A stretch of 64,000 nt of DNA from assembly GCA_963755915.1 (NCBI GenBank), contig CAVWLP010000002.1, positions 2,048,001-2,112,000 of the forward strand, in the 5' to 3' direction. Of the stretch, positions 38,681 to 40,370 are shown in pieces (position 1 is the stretch's first letter; each line of letters opens with the position of its first letter). Made by a program: the position numbers and the translations under genes. The notes under the pieces were generated by a model. That model was given only the letters and a program-made list of their open reading frames with translations. It was not told the origin of the DNA and did no database searches. This DNA comes from an uncultured Phycisphaerales bacterium. GTDB lineage: Bacteria > Planctomycetota > Phycisphaerae > Tepidisphaerales > Tepidisphaeraceae.

Positions 38681-38754
38681 GGGCGCGTAGCTCAATTGGT
38701 TAGAGTACCGGACTGTCGATCCGGTGGTTGCGGGTTCGAGCCCCGTCGCGCTCG
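38681..38754 (+). tRNA. tRNA-Asp (GTC), CCA not encoded
   Basis: Cloverleaf: acceptor gggcgcg/cgcgctc, anticodon arm ccgga-ctGTCga-tccgg, GGTTCGAG T arm. Confidence 0.97.
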
Positions 38755-38873
38755 CATTTGATAAAATGTGCCGGACGCAGTGAATAGCGTACCCCCCTTC
38801 GTTGGGGAGCGCGGCCTGAAATGACCTGGTTCCTCCGTAGTCTACGGAGGAACTAATATTTCGAGGTCGCGAT

Positions 38874-39152
38874 ATGGTTGCTTCTTCTGTGCCAAAACTT
38901 TCCCATCACAAGGCAAGTGATCAAGGGGTCGTCCGTCTGGACGGCAAGGACTTTTATCTCGGCCGCTGGAGCGACGAGCAAACCCAGCACAATTACGAGC
39001 GGTTAATGGCCGAATGGCTGGCCGGCGGCCGCAAGTTGCCGACCGAAAAAGGCGATTCAACAACCATGACCGTAACCGAAGTCATTGCTTCCTTCTGGGA
39101 CAGGGCAAATACCTACTACCGTTTTCCCGACGGGACACTCTCCAAAGAGATT
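38874..39152 (+). pseudogene. N-terminal fragment of a tyrosine integrase (planctomycete type)
   Basis: PKLSHHKASDQGVVRLDGKDFYLG...YERLMAEWLAGGR...TVTEVIASF...YY resembles integrase N-termini; directly downstream of a tRNA; no catalytic domain follows. Confidence 0.75.
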
Positions 39153-40216
39153 TCGCAAAATCCCCCGGTTCCGATGACCTCAGGCTGGAGATACTCGATA
39201 CAGCGGAACGCTGGTCCCTTTGCCGCCAGTTGCATGAGGAAATTACCGAACGGAGATATAAGCCAGGACCGAGCAGGATCGTAAAGACACAAAAACCCGG
39301 AAAGACCGGCTGCCGAGAATTGACAATCCAAAACGTGCGTGACCGAATTGTTGGCCGAGCGACTGTTCGAATTCTTCAGCCCGTTATCGATCCGAAATTC
39401 TCCCCGTTTAGTTTCGGCGGCCGCCGCGATCGCAGTGCTGCGATGGCCCTGGCAACGGCTTTGGGTATCGCGCTAAGCGAGAATAAATGGGTCTGGCTTG
39501 CCGATGACGTTCAGAAAGCATTCGACCACATCCCGTTCGAACGCTTTTTGGCCGCCTGCCGGGCGCACTTTCCAGAAGCTGTGGTGGATTTCTTGCGGCT
39601 GATTGCCGACAAAGGCACCCGCCGCGGCATTCGTCAGGGTAATCCGTTCTCGCCGCTGGCAGCGAACATTTTTTTTGACTGGTATATGGATCGTTGTTGG
39701 CATCGGGACCACCCGGATCTGCCGATTGTCCGCTACATCGACGATATGCTGCTGGTTTGTGACAGTGTCGAGCAGGCGACACTGATGTATACCGCCTTGG
39801 CTTCGCGTGCGACGGCGATGGTAACCCCGCTCAAGGGTTCCGTCGCAACGGGCGTTTTGGATCTTTCTGCCGGGGCGACGACCGACTGGCTGGGGTACCG
39901 TATCGGCCTTGAGGATGGAACGCCGGTGGTTCGGATAAGTGAAAGAGCCTGGCAGAAATTGAGCGATCGATTGAGCGCGGCCTACCTAACGCCACTTCCA
40001 CCAATAAGGGCTGAGCAGATCATACGCGGCTGGTTGGGATATCTCGGCCCGTGCTACGCGTACGAAAATCGAGCAATTGCGATCGACCGCGTCCGGGATA
40101 TCGCCTCACAGCTTGTGTTCGATGAAATTCCCTGTGCCGGTGAACTCGAGAGATTTTGGAGCGCCGCCCACGCCCGACGGCAACGGCAAAACTGGCGCCC
40201 ATGCGCCGCAAAGTGA
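39153..40216 (+). CDS. group II intron-like reverse transcriptase, probably truncated at both ends
   Basis: KSPGSD (RT0), KPGKTGCRELTI..VRDR, SFGGR, DDVQKAFDHI, GIRQGNPFSP, RYIDD, WLGY, thumb-like IRGWLGY. Confidence 0.88.
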
Positions 40217-40370
40217 TATAGATGCTCACAAACAGCAGGTAGTCCCCGATGCCGTTTTCTGTGAATGTCGACCCAATAACGCGCCGTCGGGACGCAAAAA
40301 TTTTGATCGCGTTCTCGGCTGCATTGTTGTTCCATGACACCCCATTGTGCGACAAAAACGTGAACAGCCT
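40190..40370 (-). mobile_element. IS66-family transposase C-terminal fragment
   Basis: LFTFL...VSWNNNAAENAIK....RR...T..G....LFVSIYIT.R. Confidence 0.75.

Follow-up and report, generated by a model that had tools for sequence, protein, structure and literature searches.

Probable remains of a reverse transcriptase-carrying tRNA-Asp island in an uncultured Phycisphaerales bacterium, and the intron-free cassette to which they point

Introduction

On contig CAVWLP010000002.1 of an uncultured Phycisphaerales bacterium (GenBank assembly GCA_963755915.1), the 1.7 kb between a tRNA-Asp gene and a PhyH-family dioxygenase gene hold the beginning of an integrase gene, a reverse transcriptase (RT) in another reading frame and a piece of an IS66 transposase gene. 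What did these pieces once form, and to what kind of system did the RT belong? The stretch analysed, called the window below, comprises 64,000 nucleotides (nt; positions 2,048,001 to 2,112,000 of the contig), and positions are those of the window unless another locus is named. An earlier sequence-only reading had taken the pieces for the deleted remnant of a tRNA-anchored integrative element with a non-intron, group II-like RT as cargo, had likened this RT to the repair enzyme G2L4 on account of its YIDD motif, and had raised the possibility of an RT-integrase system.

Taken as a whole, the reading reached here is very probably correct: the 1.7 kb are the non-functional wreck of an RT-carrying tRNA-Asp island, and the RT comes from an intron-free cassette. 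Remnant and cargo had both been recognized rightly, as a truncated integrase and RT were found together with intact relatives that carry island genes, and as homologous loci without intron RNA define an RT family outside the intron clade. The constant partner of the RT is a protein resembling superfamily 2 helicases (SF2-like), and the likeness to G2L4 was not upheld.

Results

Layout of the remnant

The features between tRNA-Asp and PhyH are listed in Table 1. Their order was as previously described: the gap between tRNA-Asp and the integrase-bearing open reading frame (ORF; 38874-39284 in the ORF list) is 118 nt (given as 120 nt), and the break lies at 39153-39157, in agreement with the ~39152 given before. 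The RT runs in the other frame from RT0 through RT1-7, YIDD and the thumb to the IS66-like fragment. The tRNA-Asp gene, on what would have been the attL side of the island, is presumed to be the target of integration.

The first ~92 residues of the integrase remnant match four paralogues in the same genome (E 9e-24 to 3e-10, 42-51% identity) and, by tblastn, the N-termini of the integrases of the related loci L016 (34% identity, E 4e-11) and L014 (32%, E 3e-9), both of which bear the PF00589 (Phage_integrase) catalytic domain. The N-terminal arm/core-binding region is homologous to that of bona fide integrases. The remnant itself gave no Pfam match, PF00589 included, and the R-H-R-Y catalytic domain is gone. 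Homology in the integrase frame reaches at least the codon ATT at 39150-39152, where the match to the paralogue L011 ('...DGTLSKEI') ends at 39152. In the RT frame it begins no later than AAA 39158-39160, the lysine codon of KSPGSD, which corresponds to the family RT0 motif K[AS]PGxxG in alignment A1. Compared with the intact relatives, ~5.4 kb (L014 coordinates) or 5.7 kb (L016) of sequence are missing at this joint.

The open frame of the RT (ORF 39014-40216) comprises 400 codons, including an out-of-frame ATG at 39014, and has YIDD at 39734-39745. It matched Pfam RVT_1 (E 3.8e-19) and the group II RT/maturase model TIGR04416 (E 5.6e-38, 131 bits; cut-off 300). Residues 82-430 of the L014 RT (488 amino acids, aa), the closest relative, align by tblastn to 39140-40186 at 62% identity, and homology stops at 40186. 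Judged from this match and alignment A1, the window RT lacks ~82 N-terminal and ~58 C-terminal residues of the family.

The IS66 fragment also matches Pfam DDE_Tnp_IS66 (E 1.8e-4). The E-values of the integrase, RT and NF033517 matches lie well outside the range of chance. It is not a complete IS66 element: it contains neither the DDE core nor insertion sequence (IS) ends, and no second DNA copy of it was found anywhere in the genome. Both ends of the fragment are deletion joints, because neither is an IS terminus. The PhyH gene is the first ordinary chromosomal gene on the right, and the remnant therefore ends before 40461. When the proteins of the L014 cassette were compared with 36000-44000 by tblastn, only the integrase N-terminus and the RT matched, and the SF2-like profile had no match anywhere in the genome. 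No intron RNA had been visible to the sequence-only reading, and no D1-D4 or Intron_gpII model of Rfam matched within 36000-44000 even at E≤10.

Table 1. Features from tRNA-Asp to the PhyH gene (window positions)
Feature	Position	Strand	Basis
tRNA-Asp (anticodon GTC), intact	38681..38755	+	ARAGORN; Rfam RF00005, 67.7 bits
Tyrosine-integrase N-terminal remnant, codons 1-93	38874..39152	+	Paralogues; homology to L014/L016 integrases
Junction 1, deletion joint with frame switch from integrase to RT	39153..39157		Frames read against alignment A1 and the L011 paralogue
Group II intron-like RT remnant: RT0 (KSPGSD), RT1-7, thumb	39158..40186	+	RVT_1, TIGR04416, alignment A1, tblastn
Junction 2 (40187-40190), then non-homologous RT-frame tail to the stop codon	40187..40216	+	Homology end at 40186; IS66 match from 40191
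IS66 transposase C-terminal fragment	40191..40376	-	NF033517 positions 314-375 of 387, E 3.8e-8, 32.8 bits (cut-off 180)
PhyH-family dioxygenase gene	40461..41363	-	Pfam PhyH, E 1.1e-20

The remnant probably arose as follows. An island of the L014/L016 type would have integrated at tRNA-Asp, bringing with it, in the order seen in the relatives, genes for a tyrosine integrase, an excisionase-like helix-turn-helix (HTH) protein, a ParB-like protein, an SF2-like protein of ~500 aa and a group II intron-derived RT. One illegitimate deletion of ~5.5 kb would have cost the island all integrase codons from 94 onwards, the genes for the HTH, ParB-like and SF2-like proteins and the RT up to about codon 82, so that integrase codon 93 now meets RT codon ~83 in a different frame. 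In a second event, which involved an IS66 element, the ~58 C-terminal codons of the RT would have been lost along with the rest of the island, and 186 nt from the middle-to-C-terminal part of the transposase gene would have been left. The window RT is read as a pseudogene, presumably inactive, because the integrase catalytic domain and the partner genes are missing and the RT is without its N-terminal extension.

A conserved RT cassette in Planctomycetota

A word-indexed search of 5.8 billion proteins yielded 12 homologues of the window RT (354-481 aa, 36-63% identity) with RVT_1 as sole domain; the next matches, at E 3e-7, were intron proteins bearing GIIM. Two more homologues of 632-633 aa, one of them a fusion of RT and ribonuclease H (RNase H), came from a search of longer proteins. 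A genome collection scanned with the RT gave 29 loci. A further scan with the RT alignment gave 64, among which only L083, L084, L085, L096 and L110 belong to the family and the rest look like ordinary introns. The full-length relatives measure 414-633 aa and come from Planctomycetota. Alignment A1 shows an extra N-terminus in these members ('MYESLLE...DPAL.H.G...') and a conserved C-terminal tail ('WSAAHARW...LP.RL').

Neighbouring genes were counted from annotated loci and from tblastn and hidden Markov model (HMM) scans of all fetched loci, giving 30 loci with the window included. An SF2-like gene lies directly upstream of the RT gene in 22 of the 25 family loci whose upstream sequence is available (four further loci begin at a contig edge and were left out of this count), the exceptions being L023, L026 and L002, a second, truncated paralogue in the genome of the window. 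The start and stop codons of the two genes overlap in L071 and L072, and an ORF of 100-167 aa stands between them in L019, L069 and L070. Eight loci have a ParB-like gene (Pfam ParB_N; PHROG ParB-like) ahead of the SF2-like/RT pair, and a divergently transcribed MerR-like gene is present in L019, L071 and L072. The loci sit among nuclease-type genes (PD-(D/E)XK, HNH, DUF4011, DUF4062-TPR), and six of the 14 loci scanned for them contain tRNA or tmRNA genes, the tRNA identities differing.

Of 400 other Planctomycetota genomes, sampled evenly, eight have the SF2-like gene, in each case adjacent to the RT gene; the carriers fall into one family-level group, of which they make up 8 of 20 genomes. 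A tree of 19 SF2-like rows reproduced the main splits of the RT tree: the same 7-row clade scored 99 in both, and the sister pairs L072/L048, L073/L082, L069/L070 and L017/L018 were common to the two. RT and SF2-like gene have thus diversified together. The intact cassette is a long-lived functional unit, with translational coupling in some loci.

Two genomes carry two SF2-like/RT pairs each, on two contigs of G223 (L073 and L082) and on two contigs of one metagenome-assembled genome (L017 and L018). The copies are sisters in both trees, which suggests a within-genome duplication or two related islands.

In the subclade of the window, four loci have a conserved GC-rich hairpin, with a T-run behind it, right before the RT start codon (L014:5700-5778, L016:5690-5760, L027:3950-4016 and L015:4470-4506; alignment A3). 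Possible roles are those of an RNA element or of a terminator or attenuator that separates the SF2-like gene from the RT. An RNA from the space between the two genes was considered as a general template of the RT and was rejected, as the genes overlap in L071/L072 and a small ORF fills the gap in L019/L069/L070.

Integrases and the RT

Tyrosine integrases occur in nine of the 30 loci. Four loci (L014, L016, L019 and L022) share the collinear order integrase, HTH (HTH_17 where present), ParB-like, SF2-like and RT, and L014 adjoins tRNA-Gly. The RT-integrase system raised by the sequence-only reading stands in so far as full-length homologues do recur beside tRNA-targeting integrases. As a description of the cassette it is not supported: the integrase link is real but not obligatory, and the constant RT partner is the SF2-like gene.

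Integrase and RT might nevertheless form one retro-mobile system, a bacterial counterpart of the eukaryotic DIRS elements: the RT, in some members together with RNase H, would copy a transcript of its own island into DNA, which the tyrosine recombinase would put back at tRNA genes. The four collinear loci, the RT-RNase H fusions in L019 and P0016 and the L014 cassette, which seems to fill most of a small island (as judged from gene content, without borders), are in keeping with such a cycle. Against it, about half of the well-covered loci have no integrase in their flanks: none was found over the 7-9 kb examined to either side of L069, L070 and L072, or over the flanks examined of L071 and L085. 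Integrase orientation and position vary in L018, L020 and L026, and RT and integrase histories are incongruent, the window RT being 62% identical to that of L014 and the integrase N-terminus 32%. Genomes hold one or two copies, without terminal or att repeats, and some of the RTs have DN at the active site. DIRS elements thus differ on several counts, RNase H being found in two members of the family only. A retro-mobile system is accordingly improbable, if the least improbable of the alternatives. A shade less probable again is the extended proposal that intact islands are self-contained retro-replicating integrative elements, in which recombinase, RT, helicase-fold and ParB-like proteins together copy the island via RNA and re-insert it, the window being a dead copy.

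The helicase-fold partner

The SF2-like partner has ~500 aa (485-569 aa) and matched no Pfam, PHROG, NCBIfam or PADLOC model. A profile search of 1.84 billion cluster representatives returned 3804 homologues at E≤0.001, 1127 of them at E≤1e-30; in the 20 clusters inspected, the only name given was 'hypothetical protein', and most were unnamed and from metagenomes. A representative had no tblastn match in plasmid and phage collections. An AlphaFold2 model built from a 95-row alignment reached a mean predicted local distance difference test (pLDDT) value of 85.2 and a predicted template modelling (pTM) score of 0.68. In Foldseek comparisons with the PDB, the best matches were archaeal/eukaryotic XPB (E 2.8e-15), T4 UvsW (4.3e-13) and RadD, in a range up to 1e-10; TM-scores were low (0.3-0.4), as expected for differently posed lobes. 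Protein-language-model features pointed to phage ResIII/Helicase_C helicases (0.96). The predicted fold is thus one of two RecA lobes preceded by an N-terminal domain, as in XPB, UvsW and RadD.

Unlike these helicases, to which sequence identity is 10-15%, the partner has no Walker A motif and a degenerate Walker B motif. The pattern GK[ST] was found in one of the 95 aligned members, away from the conserved loop, and the Walker B position is D in 60 of 95, mostly followed by A ('D-A' instead of DExx). The partner is read as a helicase-fold protein that probably no longer hydrolyses ATP. Predictions of a complex of SF2-like protein and RT gave 0.71, 0.12 and 0.25 in separate runs against a mark of 0.32 and are not evidence either way.

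Active site of the RT family

Within the family YADD is the commonest active-site motif. YIDD occurs in three distinct members (the window, L014/P0002 and L019), YVDD in L022, L026, P0003 and P0012, YGDD in P0013, and Y[AV]DN in L030, L071, L072 and P0011. The YIDD of the window was the ground for comparing its RT with G2L4, and a G2L4-type domesticated RT, acting in double-strand-break repair by microhomology-mediated end joining, would be the corresponding explanation. For G2L4 RTs, both YIDD and a role in repair are reported (10.1101/2022.03.14.484287 and PMC4244168, in the parts accessible), and the partner has the predicted fold of the repair helicases XPB, UvsW and RadD. The motif is not conserved in the family, however, and the family profile matches the G2L4 structures far more weakly (9d4s, E 1.5e-15, 60 bits) than the mobile-intron RT GsI-IIC, to which it aligns over residues 3-326, from RT0 through thumb/X (E 7e-38, 134 bits). 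G2L4 is moreover described as restricted to Proteobacteria in the accessible part of PMC4244168, whereas the present RT family sits in islands and was found here only in Planctomycetota. A repair RT of this type is therefore quite unlikely, and the analogy drawn from YIDD was abandoned.

Some members are extended beyond the RT. L019:5719-7590 and P0016 are natural RT-RNase H fusions (RNase_H, E 7e-36 and 1e-36). C-terminal extensions that match no Pfam family are seen in P0017 (632 aa) and in the RTs of L069 and L070, both of 586 aa.

Intron-free status

Intron RNA was sought in the 13 Planctomycetota loci closest to the window, none of which had a match at the Rfam gathering score; five of these were searched at E≤1, likewise with no match. 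The same search detected D1-D4 and/or domain V models in all six positive controls, namely five distant non-planctomycete loci and the multicopy intron of the genome itself. Homologues with domain V/VI, which would have spoken for an intron, were thus not found. GIIM (PF08388) matched no family member scanned, nor was an endonuclease domain found. Full-length members scored 126-146 bits with TIGR04416, against a cut-off of 300. Class-specific RT models gave at most 53 bits for the window RT, against 127 bits with a generic group II-type model; across class models, Drt9 reached 52 bits and UG17 34-76 bits, against 127-163 bits for the generic model, and the retron St85 model gave the window RT 12.7 bits with a cut-off of 235.

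An RT tree of 66 rows was built with IQ-TREE in quick mode, with the Shimodaira-Hasegawa-like approximate likelihood ratio test (SH-aLRT) as sole support measure and a limited set of intron RTs as outgroup. The starred clade (SH-aLRT 98) consists of 25 rows and includes all six Rfam-confirmed intron RTs and two GIIM-bearing proteins, its other rows being group II-type RTs of unverified intron RNA. The RT family forms the other side of the tree (39 rows, supports 91/80/90, none starred), and L026 and L036 are long branches beside the intron side. The window RT is sister to L014 (100) inside a 16-row clade (100). The family thus appears to be a non-intron, group II-like one that is set apart from true intron RTs and yet closer to these than to G2L4. 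The tree contains no curated reference RTs of the named intron classes, of CRISPR systems or of the G2L clades, of which the 2019 RT landscape paper reportedly defines four more.

The window RT could in principle be an ORF left behind by an ordinary mobile group II intron, for instance in a 5'-truncated retrohoming product whose ribozyme parts were deleted. The best family-level matches are indeed intron RTs (TIGR04416; GsI-IIC RT), and an intron that looks active is present in the genome in at least 12 identical copies. The TIGR04416 score, however, lies far below the cut-off, with the resident intron protein the window RT shares no more than 29% identity, and its full-length relatives are without intron RNA, GIIM and endonuclease domain, have a conserved protein partner and lie outside the intron clade. 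This explanation has a very slim chance and is already largely refuted.

The resident intron is of interest in itself. Its 12 copies lie on contigs C2 and C3 (L003-L008 and six further places) with identical match scores and encode a protein of 474 aa, and L003 shows the D1-D4-6 and domain V models of Rfam. This bona fide group II intron looks recently active.

Authenticity of the junctions

The source genome is an assembly of three contigs (6.63 Mb) with 81% completeness and 8% contamination, which leaves room for chimeric joints. Logan contigs, not raw reads, from four soil-metagenome runs of one study (X1-X4) were compared over 38600-40600. A 2048-nt contig of X1, possibly the source sample, covers 38685-40600. 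Junction 1 is bridged by X2 record 4 (39066-39415) and X3 record 12 (39103-39701), and junction 2 by X2 record 8 (40079-40236) and X4 record 15 (40020-40221), all with zero differences. A chimera specific to this assembly is very unlikely, and of all the alternatives an assembly artefact has the least to recommend it.

Related pieces in the genome and other features of the window

A second family RT was found in the same genome (L002/L068, G000:C2:3583367-3587143; RT at ~1303-2307, minus strand). It is truncated, 35% identical to the window RT, with an open frame of 264-335 aa and FADD at the active site; it has no SF2-like gene upstream and no intron RNA, and is probably another remnant. The four integrase paralogues L010-L013 are located at G000:C3:553034-556279, C2:574263-577517, C2:3311939-3315184 and C2:629984-633139. 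Against a full-length integrase, L010, L012 and L013 align in two or three separate pieces and L011 over no more than about the first 200 residues, so that most of them look disrupted. The second RT and these paralogues fit a graveyard of such islands in the genome.

A direct repeat of the tRNA 3' end was sought as att site in the window, L014, L015, L020 and L026, and none was found. One candidate, a 15-mer with one mismatch at 17590, was rejected, as it lies on the wrong side and within chance expectation.

On the other side of tRNA-Asp, a minus-strand ORF of 357 aa (37622-38695) with an RNase HII N-terminal match (E 9.7e-12) overlaps the tRNA gene by 15 nt if it begins at the TTG listed as its start; translation probably begins further downstream. 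At 59288-63891 and 44603-47516, two kinds of repeat were noticed: copies of a gene-sized unit of ~2048 nt (78-80% identical, ~2 kb spacing) with internal 51-nt repeats and, separately, a run of eight 39-nt repeats spaced at multiples of 102 nt (34 codons).

Discussion

The probable wreck of an island

The reading of the 1.7 kb as the remnant of an RT-carrying island, and of its RT as part of an intron-free cassette, has several points to contend with. The RT frame is still open over 400 codons; decay would therefore be recent, or a truncated protein may still be made. The borders of the island are undefined in the absence of att repeats. The family clade has no starred support and the intron RTs of the outgroup are limited in number, and the adjacency of RT and SF2-like gene was seen in Planctomycetota loci, the SF2-like family having 3804 representatives in metagenomes. 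A catalytic role of the cassette is further burdened by the Y[AV]DN active sites of four members and by the missing Walker A motif of the partner.

Comparison with known RT systems

The closest described group is probably G2L5, with which the family was compared by description and not by sequence. G2L5 was introduced by Simon and Zimmerly (2008) for planctomycete RTs without intron RNA, with a change from DD to DN and an N-terminal extension of ~500 aa (PMC2602772 and PMC4244168, accessible parts). The part of PMC8934634 available calls the group inconsistent, its two RTs being 28% identical and 'located in transposons'. Common to G2L5 and the present family are the proximity to intron RTs, a retained maturase-like thumb, the lack of intron RNA and planctomycete hosts; the DN change is shared by part of the present family, the window not included. 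Most members of the present family, unlike G2L5, keep YxDD, and in place of the N-terminal extension they have a separate gene of about the same size directly upstream. The G2L5 descriptions, as far as accessible, mention neither SF2-like or ParB-like partners nor an island setting. For G2L RTs in general, an association with queuosine genes is given, with no ParB or helicase partner in the accessible part of the source (PMC8632793).

The similarity to the mobile group II intron RT (GsI-IIC RT, PDB 6ar1) extends over RT0-RT7 and the thumb. Where that RT belongs with a ribozyme and a DNA-binding/endonuclease domain, the family has neither these nor a GIIM Pfam match; it adds an N-terminal extension of ~55 aa and a C-terminal tail of ~80 aa, and is single-copy with a conserved protein partner. 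With G2L4 (PDB 9d4s, 9d5x) it has in common that the RT is free-standing and group II-like, operon and hosts being different. Like DRT, UG and Abi systems and retrons, the RTs are apparently domesticated, accompanied by accessory proteins, patchily distributed and borne on islands; in contrast to these, the class HMM matches are weak and the partners are absent from PADLOC v2.

Possible function of the intact cassette

In the intact cassette, the RT would make complementary DNA (cDNA) or DNA on some template, as part of an island-borne accessory module. The ATPase-dead helicase fold would serve as a scaffold that binds nucleic acids, and the ParB-like protein would bind DNA or act as a switch or nuclease. 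Island-borne defence against phages or other mobile DNA is the function we favour, tentatively and without regarding it as the probable outcome. It is favoured because, according to the review and the surveys in their accessible parts, nearly all characterized intron-free bacterial RTs act in defence, and because of the patchy distribution, the extreme divergence, the presence of a regulator of its own and the nuclease-type genes on the islands. Against it, no PADLOC model matches the SF2-like or ParB-like proteins, save a methyltransferase model through its ParB domain, and no recognizable effector or toxin domain was found in the cassette.

A role in replication or maintenance of the island is clearly less likely, though worth considering. 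It was considered because the cassette follows right after the integrase and excisionase genes, combines ParB, helicase fold and polymerase, and includes RNase H fusions; in L014, as far as gene content without defined borders can tell, it seems to make up much of a small island. The lack of repeats, the low copy number and the many loci without an integrase speak against this role. Defence and replication alike are weakened by the absent ATPase motif, the DN active site of some RTs and the lack of a recognizable effector. DNA repair in the manner of G2L4 is a rather improbable function, and other functions share what remains.

Meaning of the cassette

The copy in the window is itself presumably dead, and its value is that of a pointer to the cassette: a clade of intron-free, group II-derived RTs that are bound into an operon with an apparently ATPase-dead, XPB/UvsW-like protein, often with a ParB-like protein as well, on tRNA-integrated islands. 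No description of the association of RT and SF2-like protein, with or without ParB-like protein, was found in the accessible parts of RT surveys, in PADLOC or in literature on RT, ParB, helicase and group II, many subscription papers lying outside this coverage. The cassette falls within the domesticated group II-like RTs, as one more route by which intron RTs are recruited. Time and again, bacterial RTs that had been domesticated have proved to serve defence or repair and to be of use in biotechnology. The combination of RT and scaffold protein, with its natural RNase H fusions and its members whose active site is mutated, is a candidate for a further system of this kind and can be put to the test.

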